From NCBI GenBank assembly GCA_963787835.1, contig CAWBEI010000002.1:736001-800000 (forward strand): a DNA stretch of 64,000 bases. Reading direction: 5' to 3'. The translations under genes and the position numbers were made by a program. The stretch is from Ignavibacteriota bacterium (lineage in GTDB: Bacteria; Bacteroidota; Ignavibacteria; Palsa-1295). Below the pieces are notes generated by a model. The model did not search any database. It worked only from the letters and a program-made list of their open reading frames with translations, and was not told where the DNA came from. Shown here one piece after another: positions 2,723-51,874 of this stretch (positions within the stretch are counted from its first letter, which is position 1; each line of letters starts with the position of its first letter).

Positions 2723-3046
2723 ATGCCAACGTACGAATACCGCTGCCGTTTTTGCCATCAAATGACCGATGCATTCCAGCGCATGAGCGATGCCCCGCTG
2801 CTCACATGCCCCCATTGCGGCAAGGATGGACTCGAACGCATCGTCTCCGGTGGCGCCGGGGTCATCTATAAAGGCGAAGGATGGTATGTCACCGATTACT
2901 CCAAGCGATCTTCCGGCGGCAAAGAACCGACTGCCAAAACCGAAGTTAAATCGGATGCTCACAAAACCGACGCCACGAAAACCGATACCCCAAAAACTGA
3001 AACTCCACCCAAAGAGTCAAAAGCTGCCTCGACACCTTCCGAGTGA
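2723..3046 (+). CDS. FmdB-family zinc-ribbon protein
   Basis: MPTYEYRCRFC...CPHCG...IYKGEGWYVTDY plus low-complexity K/T/S tail. Confidence 0.9.
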   Translation: MPTYEYRCRFCHQMTDAFQRMSDAPLLTCPHCGKDGLERIVSGGAGVIYKGEGWYVTDYSKRSSGGKEPTAKTEVKSDAHKTDATKTDTPKTETPPKESKAASTPSE

Positions 3047-3086
3047 AATGCTTTTCGTGTGTTTGTTCATTTCAAATTCATAATCA

Positions 3087-3301
3087 CCCTCGATTCCGAG
3101 CCAATTTCGCCATTTAGTTTGCCAAATATTTTTTTGCATTAGGAAGTCATAAAGGCACCATTTTCTTGAAAACGGGTGCTCATCAAAATCAATTGAATTG
3201 TCATTTAATGAACTCACCCTTCTCTTTCATGAATTCATGCAATGTTTGTTCTCCAAGAAATAGGTGCTCCTAATACCACTTTCTAATATACGACACTTTT
3301 C
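3087..3301 (-). ncRNA. Candidate structured non-coding element, copy A
   Basis: Colinear conserved blocks shared with 49851-50070 (27/29-nt identical core); minus-strand hairpin with G-U pair; TATATTAG promoter-like motif at 3283-3290. Confidence 0.45.
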
Positions 3302-3330
3302 TCAAACTCCATCGAAAATAAATTTTACGA

Positions 3331-5433
3331 CTACTGAGGGTAATTCGGAATTATAACATCCTTTGGTACATCCCAAACCTTGACGTAATCGATCAGATGG
3401 TGTGCAGCATGAACCCAATGCCCACTACCAGGAGGAATTTCTACATCCCAACAACCAGGATTATACGGATGGGTATCAAAGTAGTGATATTCCTCATAGG
3501 TTATTGATTTATAATAGGTAACACCCCCGGAAACCCAAGCTACCGTATCATTCCGGGCGAAGGTATCCTTGATACCGACATCAATATCGGTTTCGGCGGG
3601 ATTAATAGCCACCATTCCACGCGGGAGGGAGTTGGCAAAGTCGTAGTAAGGATTAGTATTCGGGACCAGCCGATCTGGGAATCTTCGCACAACCACACTA
3701 TCGACCAAGTAGCGAATCTCATGCGGAAGCAATTCCATAGCGTATGTATGATATTGGTACCCGCTGACCGTATCCATCCCATTGAAAAGAAGTGGCGGGA
3801 TCGGATAACTATTGTGCGGCGAATAAATATCGTCGATATTAAATGAATAGGCCTCTGTACCGCTGTGAAGATCGCCGGGTGCCATCGTATCGTCCAAATA
3901 TAATTTACCCGAGTCGTGCGGATGGTTCAGGTTATATTCCCAATGACAACCAAATGATTTTTGAATCCCAAAACCTGTCGTCAACGTAATCGAATTTGGC
4001 TGATGCGTTTTTGTGAAATGAAGTGTATCACCCGCCCGATTAATGTGATAGCCAGGAGTGGAAAAGTACCTCCATTTGCCATGGCTATCGGTATCGACTC
4101 TCCATGGGAAGATATCTGAAGTATACGGATTAGCGATCGAATAATTGAATGAAAAAGAACCATGCGGACTCGTGAGGGAGGATGGCCAGCCCATGTTTTG
4201 GGTCCAACTGGCCGCCATAACGGTATCCATGCCATGATGAGGCACAAACTGTACCTGATAGGCAACATTATTGATGATGATCGCATTGGGGTTGTTCGAA
4301 AGGCACCATTCCGGTTGGGAGCTGGTGAAGATAACGGTGTCATGGACCGTTCCAAAGGAACCTTGAAACGGTCCATACTGGAACTGGTGGGAAAATCCTG
4401 GGCTGATGGTATCCATGATATTCCCGTTGTAGTCGGTCTCGTTCAGATCGAATTCGTACCCGTAGTTCCATGAGCCGCCCCAGTTGTTCGTATGGTGAAT
4501 GACATGTGGAATCTTTTCTCGAATTTCATATTTCCCGTAAGGCACGTGCGCGTATGCTGCGGTAAGCGGGAACGTGTCCAATTGTGTAAATGGAAACGGG
4601 CAGCTCCGAATAAACCCGGACGAAAATACAAACCGATCCGTGTCGTAAGGAATTAGAGAATAATTTTGACACTTGTCAAAAGCTGTGTCCGTAAGGATCG
4701 GAGAATTTTCACTATCGCGGAACTCACGGATAATAATATCGAGCGCGTGACCATCATGTGCCTGGTAATCCGTATCGAGATAGACGTTGGTATCGTTATC
4801 ACATTGAAGACCTTGCGGGTAATTGTTGCCGCCATGTCCGCCAACATGCCATTGATTTCGGAACTTTGCGGTATCGTTGAATTCGTCAGAAAAAACGGCT
4901 GTATCCCACTTCGGTTCGGTATAGGCATGAAAAAATGCTCCCGGCTTCACATGGAATCCGGATTTCAACTTTATTCTTCCGCTTGCCCGAAAATCGACAT
5001 CCTCGTTCTTGCTGACCGTAACCCAATCACCAACTCCTCCACCGGCGATAATGTCGGAGGGTGCTCCACCCGGCTGATTCCTGGCTTGAAACAAGCGCTG
5101 CCACACGGCTGTAGGGCCCAGCGTATCGCCATACGGATGCCAGTTTTGCAGCATTACGAAATGCGACCCCGAATCATTGATGATGGGACCGTATTTCGGA
5201 TAGTTCACATTCATGCCATCCGAATCCCGGATCATTATGCTTTGATTGGAAAGGTTTTGTCCAGAATCCAGTGGCCCCGGTGGTTTCATTGGATTGTAAT
5301 ACACGTCGGTATTCTGAAGCGTGATAGTACACGACTGCTGGATATTGTAGGGATTAATAGAATCCTGGGCAACGGCCTTAGTAGTCAGGGCCGATGAGCA
5401 CAGAAGAAAGATTAGGATATGGAAGTATTTCAT
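3331..5433 (-). CDS. Secreted GH16-like (ConA/laminarinase fold) protein with large insertion
   Basis: Signal peptide; VFSDEFN, FSSGFIRS, YGKYEIREKIP, EFDLNE (ExDxxE), YHTYAMEL..HEIRYLVD, DYVKVW motifs. Confidence 0.65.
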   Translation of the reverse strand: MKYFHILIFLLCSSALTTKAVAQDSINPYNIQQSCTITLQNTDVYYNPMKPPGPLDSGQNLSNQSIMIRDSDGMNVNYPKYGPIINDSGSHFVMLQNWHPYGDTLGPTAVWQRLFQARNQPGGAPSDIIAGGGVGDWVTVSKNEDVDFRASGRIKLKSGFHVKPGAFFHAYTEPKWDTAVFSDEFNDTAKFRNQWHVGGHGGNNYPQGLQCDNDTNVYLDTDYQAHDGHALDIIIREFRDSENSPILTDTAFDKCQNYSLIPYDTDRFVFSSGFIRSCPFPFTQLDTFPLTAAYAHVPYGKYEIREKIPHVIHHTNNWGGSWNYGYEFDLNETDYNGNIMDTISPGFSHQFQYGPFQGSFGTVHDTVIFTSSQPEWCLSNNPNAIIINNVAYQVQFVPHHGMDTVMAASWTQNMGWPSSLTSPHGSFSFNYSIANPYTSDIFPWRVDTDSHGKWRYFSTPGYHINRAGDTLHFTKTHQPNSITLTTGFGIQKSFGCHWEYNLNHPHDSGKLYLDDTMAPGDLHSGTEAYSFNIDDIYSPHNSYPIPPLLFNGMDTVSGYQYHTYAMELLPHEIRYLVDSVVVRRFPDRLVPNTNPYYDFANSLPRGMVAINPAETDIDVGIKDTFARNDTVAWVSGGVTYYKSITYEEYHYFDTHPYNPGCWDVEIPPGSGHWVHAAHHLIDYVKVWDVPKDVIIPNYPQ

Positions 5434-5444
5434 AGCTTCTCTCC

Positions 5445-6656
5445 TTATTTATCGATCACGATCTTTTTAAGTGCAATACCGCTTGCCGTTTGAATCTGTA
5501 AAAAGTACGTTCCTGCGGCGAATGTCGAAAGATCGAATGTAAAGCTCGCATTCGATGGCTGTGAAATATCGAGCAAATCCATTCCGAGCAGATTGAGCAC
5601 GATTATTTTTAGAATGCGCGTCGAACCGGCATCGATGGTTACTAACCCCGTTGCGGGATTCGGATAGATCTCCAGGGTATCGCTCGCTGAAGGTAGCTGC
5701 ACCACGCTCGCGGGAGAATCCGGTGCCGTCAACTCCGAGATCGGACGGTCGAATACATAATACTTTCCCGTGCCATATGTGACCTCGATAAAGAGCGATG
5801 TATCGAGAACAATCATTTGGGTTACTGCCGGTGAAATTGCTCCATAGAGACTATAGAGGCTGTCATTCTTTGCATGCCAGGTTGTACCAATATCGGTTGA
5901 GACTAAAACGCCTCGCTGAGTTCCCGCAAACAGATTTTTTCCGTCTGTCGCAAGGCAATTCACTGTTTCCTGCGTACCAGCGCTATCGACGGCAACCGTG
6001 ATCCACTGCGTGCCGCTATCGGTCGATTCCGCGAGAGTACCATTACCAACTATAAAAAGCATGGAATTCATGACGGTCATTGCGCCAATGAATGGGGGGG
6101 GAATTTGAGACCACGTATTGCCAGTATCGTATGAACGTAAGACTTCACTGCCGGTATTCGCAAAAATGCAGATACCAATTGCGGCGTAAGAAAGGGCCTC
6201 AGGACAGGCTATAACTTCCCAATTAGCTCCTGTGTCCCGCGAGCGATATGCTGAAGACAAGCCATTACCGAAAAGATACCTGCCATTTGTGAAAGGAGGA
6301 GCAGCAGCCTGAATGTCGAGCCAATTTGCACCATTGTTGGTCGATTCATACATTGGTCCTACGGTACCGTTTGTTGTGTGTGTAAACCCTGCAAAAAAGT
6401 ACGTTCCCAGCGAAGCAAACGATGTGACATTTCCCTGGGTAAAATCCAATCCACTTTCACTCTTGGCCCAAGAAGTTGGAGGAATGAAGCGATAGACATA
6501 GGACCCTCCGCCAGAATTGTCCACACCGGCCACAAACAGAGTCGTATCGTGAACCCCGAACGCTATGACTTGCCCGCCAAAGGATGCGTTTTTCCATTGC
6601 GCGGAGCAGGGAATGGCAATTGCAATGATGATGATGCAAATAGGCATTTGTTTCAT
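5445..6656 (-). CDS. T9SS-secreted BNR/Asp-box beta-propeller protein
   Basis: Signal peptide, repeated S.D.G.TW boxes, C-terminal IYPNPA...AGTYFLQI...KKIVI. Confidence 0.85.
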   Translation of the reverse strand: MKQMPICIIIIAIAIPCSAQWKNASFGGQVIAFGVHDTTLFVAGVDNSGGGSYVYRFIPPTSWAKSESGLDFTQGNVTSFASLGTYFFAGFTHTTNGTVGPMYESTNNGANWLDIQAAAPPFTNGRYLFGNGLSSAYRSRDTGANWEVIACPEALSYAAIGICIFANTGSEVLRSYDTGNTWSQIPPPFIGAMTVMNSMLFIVGNGTLAESTDSGTQWITVAVDSAGTQETVNCLATDGKNLFAGTQRGVLVSTDIGTTWHAKNDSLYSLYGAISPAVTQMIVLDTSLFIEVTYGTGKYYVFDRPISELTAPDSPASVVQLPSASDTLEIYPNPATGLVTIDAGSTRILKIIVLNLLGMDLLDISQPSNASFTFDLSTFAAGTYFLQIQTASGIALKKIVIDK

Positions 6657-6658
6657 AG

Positions 6659-8083
6659 TTACTTCTCTTTCTGATTTTTTAACTCTTGCACTTCTGCTTC
6701 CAGCGATTCGATCTTGTGATTAAGTTGCTCAATGTAAAGCATTTCTTCTTCGAGTTGCTTTGTAATTGCCTCTTCGGTTCTGCCAACCGGCACCCCCGTC
6801 TTCGCCATCTGTTTTGCAGAAGGAATATCCGGTAAATGATGATTTTCCTTAGTAAAGTTCTCGACTTCGGCAAGCGGCTTGAGTTGGTAACCAGGCTCGA
6901 AGACATAATCGGCCCAAGAGCTATCAAGAATATAAAATTCCTTCGCTATTGCAGCGCCACTCACTGCAAGCATCCATGTTAGTCCATCGCCGATATCAGG
7001 ACGAACATTCGAAAAGTTCGTAAAGTCCGGTAACGGTTTCCCGGGTGTATCCACACCGATACAAAGGGGCGTGTGGAAGTAGGAGATCCCACTTATGTTC
7101 CGCGTGACTCCGTAAGGTAGCGCTCCCGGCTGAAACACATCGAACAGATGATGATAGGGATTAGATGTGGTATCCAAATACCACATTTCTAGACCATAAT
7201 GTCCATCGACTTGCAGTGTGACACACTGGGAGAAATTGTTTTGACCCCGACCGGCACTGTAAGGCCAGGCATTGAGTTCCACGACGCCGCTTTCACTATC
7301 GACACGATTCGTGAACGAAATACCGCAGGAACCCATGCGTGCCAAACGGAAGAAACGTGCAGAGGAGCTATCGGTATGATTAATAGCACTGTTAAAATTA
7401 ATATATCTCCAATCGGCAGGATATTTTCCGCCTGTATTATACAGGCCTTCATAACGGTTACCACCATAGAACGTAAGTCCAGGGGTAGGATCGAGCTCCC
7501 CAGCCGCAGGAAGGGAACCACCACCAAACTGCAACTGATCTTTCGGCGTATCGAGACCTATCGAGTCCGGTGGCAAGTTTATTCCTACATTGCCATTATC
7601 CAAGATAGTCAGACGCTCAAGGTCGTGATGGCTTTGTTTAGGGCTTGGCTGAATGATAGTGTCTCCAGCGGTAGCAAATCGGATCGCTCCTCCTGTTTGT
7701 GATGAAAAAGCGCCGCCCGCCCAGTAATTTGTGATGATAATGTCGCCTCCCTTATTCTCATGAAGCACAAGGTCTTGCCCTTTCGAGAGTGATGAGTAAA
7801 GCGTATCTGTGCTTGGTGACATTAGCCCGAGGATGCCATAATAGTTCGAGGGTGACAATCCTCCGTTCGATAATCGAATAATCGCCTCCATGGTCGAACT
7901 TGATGACGAATCTTTGTTAATGTGCAGGGCATTCAACGCCCCGTCCGTAAGGCCATATTTCGTATCAATTCCAACGGGCGCATGAGCGGGCCAGGGCGAC
8001 GAGTTCGTCGCCTGTGAAAAAACCTCACCGCTTGTTAAAACCAATCCCCAAAACACTACTACTAAAAAACTCCAACGTCTCAT
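6659..8083 (-). CDS. Secreted protein with C-terminal tail-fibre chaperone-like (S74-like) domain and coiled coil
   Basis: ATG 8083 preceded by AGAGGTG; signal peptide; ERLTILDNGNVGIN; WADYVFEPGYQLKPLAEVENF...HHLPDIPSA followed by a heptad coiled coil. Confidence 0.7.
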   Translation of the reverse strand: MRRWSFLVVVFWGLVLTSGEVFSQATNSSPWPAHAPVGIDTKYGLTDGALNALHINKDSSSSSTMEAIIRLSNGGLSPSNYYGILGLMSPSTDTLYSSLSKGQDLVLHENKGGDIIITNYWAGGAFSSQTGGAIRFATAGDTIIQPSPKQSHHDLERLTILDNGNVGINLPPDSIGLDTPKDQLQFGGGSLPAAGELDPTPGLTFYGGNRYEGLYNTGGKYPADWRYINFNSAINHTDSSSARFFRLARMGSCGISFTNRVDSESGVVELNAWPYSAGRGQNNFSQCVTLQVDGHYGLEMWYLDTTSNPYHHLFDVFQPGALPYGVTRNISGISYFHTPLCIGVDTPGKPLPDFTNFSNVRPDIGDGLTWMLAVSGAAIAKEFYILDSSWADYVFEPGYQLKPLAEVENFTKENHHLPDIPSAKQMAKTGVPVGRTEEAITKQLEEEMLYIEQLNHKIESLEAEVQELKNQKEK

Positions 8084-8142
8084 TTTAACACCTCTTTTAA
8101 TAAATAACTTCGTGAAACACGCTTTGTTACTGAATCCTGGTA

Positions 8143-8150
8143 CAAAGATA
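8143..8150 (-). promoter_or_regulatory. Bacteroidota-type -7 promoter element (TATCTTTG)
   Basis: Exact TAnnTTTG 60 nt upstream of ATG 8083. Confidence 0.55.
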
Positions 8151-8202
8151 CGAAATAAAATGGCTGTTAGTCGGTATAGCGACTGGCGCACGATTGGCGT
8201 TA

Positions 8203-8427
8203 ATGCTATTTTATTCCCTTTTGAAACTTCAGGGAATCGTTGGGCAAAATATTCGAGCTTTCAGGAAAGCAAAATCTTGGAGTATCGAAAAATTAGCGGA
8301 ACATGCAAACGTAAGTCCTGCCTATCTTGGCGAACTCGAAAGAGGTAGAGAAAACGTCTCCATTAAAACGATTGAGTCAATTGCCAAAGCCCTAAAAGTT
8401 ACACCCGATCTTCTCTTAAAAGAATAA
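8203..8427 (+). CDS. XRE-family helix-turn-helix regulator
   Basis: GQNIRAFRKAKSWSIEKLAEHANVSPAYLGELERGRENVSI; start may be ATG 8203 or TTG 8221. Confidence 0.9.
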   Translation: MLFYSLLKLQGIVGQNIRAFRKAKSWSIEKLAEHANVSPAYLGELERGRENVSIKTIESIAKALKVTPDLLLKE

Positions 8428-8473
8428 GTTTTTTATACCTTGAAGATTTTAGGACGAGATTGAATTCCTGTCG

Positions 8474-48714: not shown

Positions 48715-49650
48715 TTAGCCAATATGATCGTCACGGAGCCAGATGCCATAGCGAACATCGATCGTGAAAGTATCCGTCTTGCCATCGCCGCTGATGCGAG
48801 TGATCGTAAGTGTGGCTGTGCCGTCACCATTATAGACGATCGAGACCTGCCGTTCGAACGTACTATCCTTGAAGCCGACCGCTTTGAAATCGCTGTTGCC
48901 GGTTCCAAGCAGATACGTTACGTTACCGCCCATCCAGTTATCATAGACTTTCACAAGCGTGTCATTCGTCCAGTTCATAGTGAACGTATGGGTGAATGTC
49001 GTGCCATTGGAGAGCTTGGTCGTCTCGCCGGCACGGGTAAGCGTGCCATTAAGCGTAGCAGAATCCGGTTCTGCGATCAGGTTCGTGATCGTCCAGGAGC
49101 CGTTCGAAGAATCGCTCAGGCTGACGCGTGGCGTCGATACGGTATGCTGGCCATGCGAAGTAATCGAAACCTCGTTCGTCTGCCCCTTGATGAATTTGGG
49201 CATCGCATTGCCGTTGGCGTCGTAGTAGGTCCATGTATGCGTCCAGGTTCCCGAATAACTGTAGCCATTCTTCGAGAAGCTGCGCGAGACCGTTGCAATA
49301 TGCACCGTCGTCGTATCGCTCGGAGAACTAAGTACGTTAGCATCCGGAATGACCTGCCCGTGCGCCAGCGTCATCGCATCGCTGAAGATCATGCCCGAAC
49401 CGCCGGAGCTGGTTCCGACCGATGTTGCGATCACATCCGCAGCATCGCGGGAATTCGCGGCTTGTACCGCATCCGGGAACGATGCTTCCGTATTAGAAGA
49501 TGATGGCGCCGTTGACTGCGATGCGCAGCCACCAAGCATCATCGATGAAGCGCCCAAAGCGACCATGGCGACAAGTGAAAGGAAGCCGGTTCTGATAGCT
49601 CCGCTTTTCCAGAAGGTGTTGAGTACCGAAAGGTTTTGATAGTAATTCAT
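48715..49650 (-). CDS. Beta-rich lipoprotein, hypothetical
   Basis: Lipobox LGGC; S/T-rich beta strands; followed by a terminator. Confidence 0.75.
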   Translation of the reverse strand: MNYYQNLSVLNTFWKSGAIRTGFLSLVAMVALGASSMMLGGCASQSTAPSSSNTEASFPDAVQAANSRDAADVIATSVGTSSGGSGMIFSDAMTLAHGQVIPDANVLSSPSDTTTVHIATVSRSFSKNGYSYSGTWTHTWTYYDANGNAMPKFIKGQTNEVSITSHGQHTVSTPRVSLSDSSNGSWTITNLIAEPDSATLNGTLTRAGETTKLSNGTTFTHTFTMNWTNDTLVKVYDNWMGGNVTYLLGTGNSDFKAVGFKDSTFERQVSIVYNGDGTATLTITRISGDGKTDTFTIDVRYGIWLRDDHIG

Positions 49651-49756: not shown

Positions 49757-49770
49757 ACAATTTCTTAAGC
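49757..49770 (+). repeat. 14-bp direct repeat, left copy
   Basis: ACAATTTCTTAAGC, identical at 51924-51937. Confidence 0.6.
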
Positions 49771-49850
49771 CAAGGATTCATCCTTCATCCTTTCCCCCGG
49801 AAATAGGTGCCATTTCTTTTTCTTGCGAGTTCCCGATATTCCTTGCTCCT

Positions 49851-50070
49851 CCCTCGTTTCCGTGCCAATTTCGCCATTTGTTCCAACAGGTATTCATAAA
49901 AGTCCCTTCACAGAGAACTCGTTCATAATGAAACCTACCGCCGAAATCAATTTTCAATGAACTCCCCCATCCTTCCCTAATCCCGAGAATCCTGTAAATC
50001 GTGGTCTAATTCTTATTTCTTAATTGATACAGGTGCCCATCATCTCACCACCAAATATACAACACTTTTC
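49851..50070 (-). ncRNA. Candidate structured non-coding element, copy B
   Basis: Homologous to 3087-3301; TATATTTG (-7 consensus) at 50052-50059; minus-strand GNRA-capped hairpins. Confidence 0.45.
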
Positions 50071-50151
50071 CGATGAGCCACCAAATTCGAAATTTTCTTT
50101 TGGCCACGCATACGGATAACACAAGCCGTGTCTCGGGAAGCGGCGCTTCTT

Positions 50152-50384
50152 AGACCCGAAGGGACGGAGTACCCGCAGCCCAGGGTGAAGTCCGCCGCGG
50201 CGGACGGAACCCTGGGTAACGGAATATGAACAGGAAGTTATAGCCCTGAAAGGGCGATGTTAGCCGTGCGGCATTTACTCCGTCCTTGCAGGACTATGGG
50301 AACATAAAGGGCATCTATACCTGGGGTTCCGTCCGCCGCGGCGGACTCCACCCCAGGCTGCGAGTACTCCGTCGCGTCGCGACT
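50152..50384. repeat. MITE/REP-like element with ~56-bp inverted arms
   Basis: Arms 50163-50218 and 50318-50373, each containing GTCCGCCGCGGCGGAC. Confidence 0.85.
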
Positions 50385-50457
50385 GAAACAATCCTGAAAA
50401 TCCAGTGAATTATGGCCCATTTTTCCCGCCCGCCATGAAATTCGGAATTTCTCCTAA

Positions 50458-50635: not shown

Positions 50636-51874
50636 ATGAAAAAAATTGCTGTTGGTTGTTTGACGATCTTGCTGTGCACTGCCACATCTCTGCATGCGCA
50701 ATTGAACAATGGAACGGACGTGCGCAGCACGTCCCTACGGACGGAACAACCGGCAGGCGTGCCACAAAATGTCAGTTTGGATGCAATGGGGACTGTATGT
50801 GCCAGCCCTTGTTTCTCGACAGGATCATATAATTGGCTTCCATATACAAGTGGAATTGTAAATGCTTATGGCATTACATATTGTGCTACAAATGGCGGCA
50901 ATTTAGGTAGTTCAAGTTCGCCACCTTCCTGGGCTTCTGGATGTCAGGATTGGGTGAACATTTTGGGAACCGATGCAGGGAAGAGTGGATCGGCCCCCCT
51001 ATCAGTTGATAGCATTAGTGACACCTGTACCTTCCTTCTCAATTATGGTAATTCTCTTTCACAGTTCCAGTCTTGGCAATCTTCATACGACACACTTCAA
51101 TTATTCATCGATAGATGCGCGCTCCGCACCAGATCGTGGTCCGCATTTGGGAGCTTGGGGAGCGATGTCCAAAATTTGCTTCCCACAGCTTACAACTTTC
51201 CAGAAGACTCTACAATTTATGCGCAATATCGGACTTGGTTATACTCAGTACTGTATCTGAACACAACAGACCCGGAGTACTTTTGCCAGTGTGTTGAACA
51301 AATTTTTGGAACCTTTGGCTATGTTAGAGTTGACACAGCAAACGAGCAAAGCTTCATTGCAGATAATTTCGGCATTGCAGTTGACCGATGGTTATTACTT
51401 AACACGAATTGCGATTCTTCTCAAGAGTGGGCTAATTGGCAATATGCACGATCGCAGCAACGCCAACTCTGGCAAAGCGACTCTATTGAAGGCACACATT
51501 ACCCCTATGATACAACAATTCCGCCTTTGGATTCGATTTACCCAGGTCTTGATACTCTCCTGGCTCGGCATGCACTGTACGCGAGCGTGAGTGAAACGCC
51601 GCAGCCAGGTATTCTTTCAAATGCCACAGCAAATCCCAACCCTGTAACCGAAGGAACTGTAATCTCCTTCAGCATCAGCAAAGAGGCGTATGTAAAGATC
51701 GAGCTTTTCGATGTGCTGGGCAAACAGGCATCTTCTTACGGCTACGAGAGCCTGTTCGAGCCGGGAAATAAATCGGTTTCCTTCTCGCTTGCCGGGCTTC
51801 CTTCCGGCACATACTATGCCCACATCATCACAGCTTATGGCGAAGTGCAAACCGTGAAATTGGTGAAGGAATGA
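50636..51874 (+). CDS. T9SS-secreted Cys-rich hypothetical protein
   Basis: Signal peptide; C-terminal ANPNPV...IELFDVLGK...LPSGTYY...TVKLVKE. Confidence 0.85.
   Translation: MKKIAVGCLTILLCTATSLHAQLNNGTDVRSTSLRTEQPAGVPQNVSLDAMGTVCASPCFSTGSYNWLPYTSGIVNAYGITYCATNGGNLGSSSSPPSWASGCQDWVNILGTDAGKSGSAPLSVDSISDTCTFLLNYGNSLSQFQSWQSSYDTLQLFIDRCALRTRSWSAFGSLGSDVQNLLPTAYNFPEDSTIYAQYRTWLYSVLYLNTTDPEYFCQCVEQIFGTFGYVRVDTANEQSFIADNFGIAVDRWLLLNTNCDSSQEWANWQYARSQQRQLWQSDSIEGTHYPYDTTIPPLDSIYPGLDTLLARHALYASVSETPQPGILSNATANPNPVTEGTVISFSISKEAYVKIELFDVLGKQASSYGYESLFEPGNKSVSFSLAGLPSGTYYAHIITAYGEVQTVKLVKE

Follow-up and report, generated by a model that had tools for sequence, protein, structure and literature searches.

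The window analysed here, meaning the whole 64,000-nt stretch with positions counted from its first letter, derives from the 3.57-Mb genome of an uncultured Kapabacteria-like bacterium (G000) and contains two copies of a dispersed, mosaic and non-coding repeat, both read on the minus strand. Copy A (3045..3326) is flanked on one side by a plus-strand gene for a zinc-ribbon protein (2723..3046; Pfam PF09723), which we take to be of the FmdB type, and on the other side by three minus-strand secreted-protein genes separated by 2–11 bp, one of them with a T9SS C-terminal domain (3331..8191). Copy B (49800..50096) is situated between a minus-strand gene with no Pfam match (48715..49650) and a plus-strand gene for a secreted protein (50636..51874), in which the match to the T9SS C-terminal domain lies just below the cut-off. 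The presence of secreted-protein genes beside both copies had been pointed out in an earlier sequence-only reading. Between the two copies, a long minus-strand run of mostly ~500-aa genes (22963-46949) ends near a glycosyltransferase-like and a methyltransferase-like gene.

Copies A and B resemble each other beyond chance (BLAST E 5e-5 for a 29-nt block; nhmmer E 6.8e-7 from B to A). The 29-nt block, here termed M1, is located at 3087..3115 in copy A and at 49851..49879 in copy B, both on the minus strand, with 27/29 identical positions; together with the GGTGC...AATATAC end, it stands where the sequence-only reading had placed it, and the boundaries drawn in that reading (3087-3301 and 49851-50070) prove too narrow. 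Copy B represents the main type and comprises the promoter, the box, a filler of heptamers and nonamers, and the N, S, M1, T and L blocks. Its L block (the half-site GGCACC plus TATTTC) and T block occupy 49800..49836, and the S block, with its tandem TTC-N5-GAA sites, and the N block occupy 49915..49962, all on the minus strand. Copy A carries a variant set consisting of the promoter, the box, A3, A2, an internal palindrome, A1, M1 and the A0 end. The palindrome is a head-to-head GCACC...GGTGC arrangement of two half-sites (3154..3179, no strand), and the A2 module (3190..3214, minus strand) is also present in the lexA leaders of the genus. Copies A and B have only M1 and the promoter end in common. 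Five shared colinear blocks had been proposed; the first (M1) and the promoter end hold, and the second and third turn out to pair A1/A2 of copy A with the S-M1 spacer and N of copy B. Homology therefore does not extend to all five blocks, A and B being built from different sets of modules.

Across G000, motif clustering gave 79 clusters, which were reduced to 76 copies by the removal of three, one within a gene and two with one weak motif each. The supposed two-copy duplication is thus one pair from a family of ~76 copies in this genome, and four relatives carry the repeat in comparable numbers. The copies are 230-300 bases long and share a mean identity of 76%. Three core motifs occur 53, 45 and 54 times in G000 versus 0, 0 and 1 times in the reversed genome. 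Both end motifs are present in 51 of the 76 copies, referred to as full copies, and L, S and R together in 49. In main-type copies, the ends are formed by direct GGCACC repeats, and the S block contains TTC-N5-GAA twice with a variable centre. Length differences of 1 nt and 10-11 nt disrupt the frame between copies, in agreement with the non-coding character assigned to them earlier. A conserved small ORF was rejected: one copy is open in frame, but the same length differences break the frame elsewhere. In many copies, heptamer and nonamer runs directly follow the GGCACC sites (49760-49799 and 49963-50030 in the window), and a similar inverted heptamer pair lies in frame inside a xerC-like gene (G000 C2:371627-372706). 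In addition, a REPIN-like GC-rich inverted repeat with a sub-threshold Acido-Lenti-1 match adjoins copy B (window 50150-50400); similar REPIN-like repeats are situated on the cargo side of many copies, and their hairpins form a family separate from the repeat.

One end of the repeat resembles a promoter. All 51 full copies contain, on the minus strand, a TATATT-type hexamer followed 4-5 nt on by a 16-mer box, GTGC-N8-GCAC, in which the right arm GCAC is invariant and the left arm is weaker (GTG[AC]), so that often only one arm is strong. The likely LexA boxes are located at 3264..3279 in copy A and at 50033..50048 in copy B (no strand), each matching 7/8 arm positions, and the predicted sigma70 -10 hexamers TATATT at 3285..3290, 5 nt from the box, and at 50054..50059, respectively, on the minus strand. 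A TTGACA/T element is present 17 bp upstream of the -10 in 16/51 copies and TTGC[AT]T in 8; no good -35 was found in copies A and B. The promoter-like minus-strand end reported earlier is therefore upheld; its assignment to the Bacteroidota -7 element is not, as a canonical sigma70 -10 box fits TATATT better. A sigma54 reading of TGGCAC was rejected because its spacing does not fit the general -24/-12 consensus.

The same box lies upstream of lexA in 21/21 and of recA in 20/20 cases within the family, compared with 0/9 and 0/10 outside it, as counted over the best 30 loci for each gene with a pattern written after the data had been inspected; LexA and RecA were identified by profile. In G000, the recA box is a perfect palindrome, and the box also precedes two dinB-like genes, ssb, recQ and DUF72-like genes, which we presume to be such from their sequences. 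Because the box stands before lexA and recA in this family and in no other family tested, GTGC-N8-GCAC is likely an undescribed, family-specific LexA box. In the SOS regulon, LexA operators lie upstream of SOS genes and overlap the promoter (PMC8565304), and the box is similar in its promoter overlap and in the genes concerned (lexA, recA, dinB-like, ssb and recQ). The E. coli operator CTGT-N8-ACAG (PMC8565304) is likewise a 16-bp palindrome with an N8 spacer. Unlike the operators of the SOS regulon, most box sites here sit in the repeat and drive no SOS gene. In the available main text of PMC8565304, 'GTGC' has 0 occurrences and GTGC-N8-GCAC is not among the motifs; likewise, no LexA box of this form was found in openly available main texts, and a Balneolaeota LexA study cited in PMC8565304 could list it.

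The lexA leader of the genus contains M1-like and A2 modules, and the repeat and the leader are therefore related. This shared make-up favours the view that the repeat is a portable LexA-controlled promoter or leader, kept to drive a downstream core gene after an island displaced the native promoter, with the phased motifs serving as transcription-factor or nucleoid-protein sites. Likewise, the joint-side gene is oriented with the promoter in 52 of 75 cases, and in ~10 of these its start lies no more than 60 bp away. DnaA-box matches, found in 13 G000 copies versus 2.9 in shuffles, a count inflated by the kinship of the copies, would also agree with regulatory sites. However, long intergenic gaps lead one to expect a fraction of 0.59, against which the orientation bias is not significant (p=0.08); copy A is directed into a gene that runs convergently, at its 3' end; and the fixed joint and the cargo polarity described below are left unexplained. 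A portable promoter is thus regarded as quite unlikely. Eight of the DnaA boxes are perfect TTATCCACA matches, and the boxes occupy two positions in the repeat (for example, in the copies at C2:583759 and C2:426578); no cluster of DnaA boxes was found next to dnaA.

The sequence-only reading had proposed a new structured ncRNA outside the known families. The latter part is confirmed by 0 Rfam covariance-model matches on the repeat; the window contains 0 gathering-score matches, and with an E-value threshold three loci gave only sub-threshold matches, all outside the repeat. The proposed structure fares less well. The mean folding z of 50 copies is -0.75 for the sense and -0.76 for the antisense strand, with -2.24 for copy A and +1.18 for copy B. 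For 62 aligned copies, alifold predicts no consensus pairs for either strand by default and helices for both under relaxed settings. Covariation was scored on the same 62 copies with our own scripts: the N/S and S/T helices exhibit no two-sided pair change and contain C-A mismatches in 13/50 and 8/62 copies at one pair each, and the top mutual-information pairs are mostly non-complementary, corresponding to haplotype linkage and not to pairing. One pair of the M1 hairpin reads C-G (31) or U-G (25), with 2 U-A, and its neighbouring pairs are broken in 18-22/62. The repeat-to-gene depth is ~15-fold in an RNA run (X6, share 0.07) versus ~45-fold in a DNA run (X5, share 0.12), both being small shares from a related strain, with contigs only and no strand, start or level; one RNA contig covers the upstream, untranscribed side of the promoter. 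Skip-joints in the RNA and DNA contigs were rejected as signs of excision, having short sides and matching paralogous copies.

With no Rfam match, no default fold, no RNA enrichment and nearly no compensatory change, a structured ncRNA is unlikely, and the repeat is conserved in the way that a DNA site is. A transcript from the repeat probably exists, because a promoter is predicted. In a weaker form of the earlier proposal, such a transcript could be a multi-copy SOS-inducible small RNA that works through repeated words in single-stranded form (AUGAA/GUUCAU), for instance as a sponge for a protein. This would agree with the promoter at one end, the near-invariant blocks that are able to pair under relaxed settings (N/S and S/T), the M1 hairpin pair, the z of copy A and the contigs matching the repeat in one metatranscriptome. 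The lack of two-sided changes and the mismatches in the same helices, the equal fold z on both strands, the lower depth ratio in RNA than in DNA and the contig reaching the untranscribed side all speak against it, as does the result that no terminator was found at copy B. The small-RNA reading is accordingly considered very unlikely.

The spacers between the internal blocks, previously described as varying in length, do not do so freely and fall into classes 10-11 bp apart. In 61 of 62 aligned main-type copies from G000 and relatives that were scored, the S-M1 spacer measures 21-22 nt (10 copies) or 31-33 nt (51), and the M1-T spacer 23-24 nt (38 copies) or 34-35 nt (23), with none between the classes in either case. 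The variable end of the 34-nt class comprises 20 distinct sequences that are only ~49% alike. Free sequence with lengths that change by a whole B-DNA turn suggests proteins bound to one helix face. A small number of indel events may account for the two spacing classes, and no such steps are seen in the N-S spacing.

At the end opposite the promoter, the repeat meets the host DNA at a fixed joint. Main-type copies end in GGCACCTATTTC and copy A-type copies in the unrelated GAAAAGCATTTC; beyond either end follow five variable bases, G[AC][AC]A and then unrelated host DNA. The G at +6 after the terminal TTTC is present in 50/51 copies, preceded by the five variable bases, and G[AC][AC] at the joint offset in 46/51. 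The same pattern fits 21 of 22 GCACC- or A0-type sites in non-main copies, a few of which are the promoter-side site. In copy B, the joint TTTC-N5-GAAA is located at 49791..49803 (no strand), and the joint-side gene starts 150 bp past it in the promoter's direction. In copy A, the joint reads TTTC-N5-GAAG in the minus-strand reading (3036..3048, no strand), and the N5 and the outer arm are situated in the last codons of the zinc-ribbon gene. The likeness of copy A's flank to the orthologue in G014 begins exactly at the outer GAAG arm, and the empty site in G014 is without the inner (left) TTTC arm. Similarly, host similarity at shared junctions begins at the joint, as judged by eye; the N5 differs in 8/9 of these, and in G000 and G002 the same host flank is joined by two different end types. 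The copy's own N5 was not found duplicated at the promoter-side site (0/51), and in the cargo it was found 8 times versus 6.3 times when shuffled.

A strict scan for the joint site gave 88 matches; 68 are located within copies, and about half of the other 20 are in coding DNA. Integron-like stacking of leftover sites in the cargo was rejected on this count. Inverted core arms around a short variable overlap, as expected of att sites, are present, with arms of only 4 bp for which an operator reading is possible. The motif GGCACC-TATTTC-N5-GAAA also occurs in the lexA and dinB promoters, and the inner joint arm overlaps the LexA half-site; the joint may therefore be operator context and not a crossover.

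The two sides of the repeat differ in their neighbours. The GC content of the 2-kb flank is 0.509 on the joint side versus 0.468 on the promoter side (68/76 copies, p=2e-11), and a T9SS CTD-like gene, as detected with a crude motif, lies within two genes of 20/75 promoter sides versus 2/75 joint sides. The joint-side neighbours include ribosomal-protein, tRNA-synthetase and metabolic genes, and the promoter-side neighbours include secreted-protein, restriction-modification, toxin-antitoxin and Cas9 genes, which we take to be correctly named. The copies are polar, with accessory genes at the promoter side and core genes at the joint side. A Cas9-like gene is the cargo of the G000 copy at C2:1211729.

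The cargo also differs between species at the same site. In G014, the zinc-ribbon gene is directly next to msrA without the ~5.8 kb island of copy A, and in G001, G002 and G009 its end adjoins other genes. Clusters paralogous to the copy A cargo were found next to G000 copies at C1 and C3, and also at a different locus in G006. At its N- and C-terminal parts, the cargo gene of copy B has DNA in common with paralogues next to three other copies (C2:997868, C4:205556 and C4:332351), and the middle differs, which suggests cassette-like exchange within the gene. Thirteen loci were compared in relatives, thus between species and not strains, and nine junctions were shared with G000; the nearest cargo differs at 8/9 of them. 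Relatives of the copy A gene trio and of a restriction enzyme are located at different junctions in different species. When the same-site copies are ranked by similarity among 51, they take ranks 1, 15, 33, 32, 20, 23, 30 and 48; rank 1 belongs to the closest relative, and the ninth junction has a different end type on the same host flank. No shared motif or second att-like site was found at the far end in three islands read. At the far end of the copy A island, a short XRE-type HTH reading frame was recognised by eye (window ~8200-8430), and similar frames exist in at least three other islands.

In some cases, the slot between the promoter-box and the repeat's downstream modules holds a gene. 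Three distinct passenger genes of this kind exist in G000 (L025, C2:1411540-1412325; L024, C2:1381574-1382383; L026, C2:4752-5522), and a fourth match looks like an assembly duplicate. The family is present in 14/15 genomes of the genus with 1-7 matches each and falls into 193 clusters. It gave no Pfam match and contains no Walker A motif; the predicted fold (pLDDT 83) resembles the DnaB/KaiC/RecA core at a TM of ~0.5. On this modelled fold, the passenger looks like an SOS-induced, inactive RecA-fold protein and not a transposase, presumably comparable in concept to SulA or ImuA. One slot holds the passenger gene in G014 and a non-coding form in G000. The 3' end of one passenger orthologue adjoins the repeat in G000, whereas in G002 and G006 it adjoins CRISPR leaders, and the junction is at TTTC-N5 in every case; at L045 and L046 (G006 and G002), a CRISPR array with ~46-nt repeats directly follows the passenger gene.

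These slots raise the possibility of a MITE-like relic, namely internally deleted copies of a unit with an SOS-regulated passenger gene that has lost its transposase and now serves as a RecA homology anchor for illegitimate cargo capture. The enclosed passenger genes in G000 and relatives and the slot occupied in one genome and non-coding in the other are what such a relic would leave behind. One-sided islands and the presence of ComEC also agree with it, and the terminal motif variants are species-specific, as gene conversion predicts. On the other hand, there are no terminal inverted repeats and no target duplication, the passenger has neither a transposase fold nor a Walker A motif, the copies average only 76% identity, and a passive relic would not hold its spacers in one-turn steps. 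A relic origin is therefore judged unlikely.

With copy B as query, 21-25 matches were obtained in 4 of 14 other genomes of the genus and 0-5 in the rest. The promoter-plus-box pattern is present in 24/24 other genomes of the family versus 0/16 from other families, and the reversed control gave 0. G000 has 59 promoter-box sites and the four carriers have 45-52 each; seven more genomes have 20-33, and the remaining ones 1-11. Of 30 such sites read in G001, G004 and G020, many are non-coding versions that have diverged and contain related modules; the others drive genes directly. A homologue of a protein linked to the repeat is labelled Candidatus Kapabacteria.

Among the families searched in the carriers, no recombinase was found that tracks the repeat. 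Of the three tyrosine recombinases encoded in G000, two are read as XerC and XerD and one as a tRNA-linked integrase, which has close orthologues only in G000, G001, G006 and G014; G002, which is 97% complete and has 51 promoter-box sites, encodes only two tyrosine recombinases. A reverse transcriptase (absent from G000), IS110 (2/5 genomes), rve (above the cut-off in 1/5 genomes) and DDE_Tnp_1 (3/15 genomes) were rejected as mobilisers. IS1595 is present as a single copy in G000, and resolvases occur in 5/5 genomes, that of G000 being split and near a tRNA island. Y1/RAYT gave 10 matches in G000, four of them within cargo, and is a possible helper. The Y2 (IS91/ISCR) search gave 0/5 genomes, with a control that also had no match anywhere, and a ComEC-type competence gene is present in 5/5. 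In a dif/pdif (Xer) test, no XerD-like arm was found in the repeat, and an XerC-arm reading of GGTGCCCATCA was rejected, since the spacing and the partner arm misfit the general consensus. Because no recombinase was found to be common to the carriers, the mechanism set out below is one that we infer.

Several known systems provide partial parallels. Integrons consist of attI and attC sites with a LexA-regulated intI, and the repeat shares with them the SOS link and cargo turnover beside a fixed site; it differs in having no integron integrase, no attC between cargo genes and a promoter directed away from the cargo. MITEs and REPINs are also dispersed short repeats, and here terminal inverted repeats and target-site duplication are lacking. 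[quoted passage not shown] Like the repeat, NIMEs are many intergenic, mosaic, non-coding units with a short palindrome of variable core at their bounds, at syntenic yet dynamic positions beside variable surface-protein genes (PMC1797815). The NIME site is ATTCCC-N8-GGGAAT, whereas the repeat has TTTC-N5-GAAA and GGCACC half-sites; NIMEs form long arrays, whereas the repeat forms single polar units and adds a predicted promoter, a likely LexA box and fixed helical phasing. In the att sites of CTnDOT/IntDOT, according to the available text of PMC2817482, the core site tolerates a heterologous overlap, as proposed for the joint here, and arm-type sites with accessory proteins would fit the phased blocks. 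Compared with these, the repeat has no cognate integrase found, no far-end att site and ~76 sites per genome. Homology-facilitated illegitimate recombination, in which a one-sided anchor and an illegitimate far end give one-sided insertions (PMC5361080, as far as its text is available), is a process and not an element, and it predicts neither a fixed joint nor phasing. The repeat would work like NIME or att-type systems yet lacks features that define membership in them, no account of it was found in openly available main texts, and there is a real chance that it represents a new gene-capture system.

The fixed joint with its variable core, the phasing, the polarity and the combined turnover of allele and cargo fit a one-sided landing site similar to NIME/dRS3. 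At close to an even chance, we hold that the mosaic repeat marks one side of accessory islands and is an SOS-controlled landing site at which foreign blocks are swapped at TTTC-N5-GAAA. The observations on which this draws are the copy number, the polarity, the fixed joint, the one-turn spacing, the cargo and allele differences at the same junction and the box at lexA and recA. The ComEC-type competence gene in 5/5 genomes also speaks in its favour. In such a scheme, LexA would bind the box and DNA damage would open the promoter, and proteins on the phased internal motifs would build an att-like complex. Incoming DNA composed of cargo and repeat would then cross over at or near the joint through a heterologous 5-bp core, in an IntDOT-like manner, and the far end would be resolved illegitimately, giving one-sided islands. 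RecA-type conversion between copies would shuffle the modules and homogenise the copies within a genome. Either a host enzyme or an enzyme brought by a visiting element would act as the recombinase. A stronger version, in which the repeat is a dispersed, integron-like capture system without its own integrase, with dozens of LexA-gated, phased sites built from lexA-leader modules and a host enzyme that exchanges blocks of secreted-protein and defence genes there, at TTTC-N5-GAAA, upon DNA damage, is more speculative and appears doubtful.

If the landing-site reading is right, the accessory genome of the lineage would be laid out as ~76 stress-gated slots per chromosome for the turnover of secreted-protein and defence genes; this would amount to the Neisseria NIME model, itself still under debate, in a more ordered form, with a precise joint and a spacing rule open to mutation. 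Independently of the mechanism, the analysis yields GTGC-N8-GCAC as a candidate LexA box, together with an SOS regulon in a so far unstudied family. Sites of this box have greatly increased in number, from 1-11 promoter-box sites in some genomes to 45-59 in carriers, and the P-loop-degenerate DnaB/RecA-fold proteins form a lineage-restricted family under control of the box.

Two further features were observed in G000. A dif-like 28-mer, unrelated to the repeat, is located at C6 ~117500 near the GC-skew turn. In addition, C2:1-14500 contains an inverted duplicate of typA and its neighbours at the contig start, which is probably an assembly artefact.
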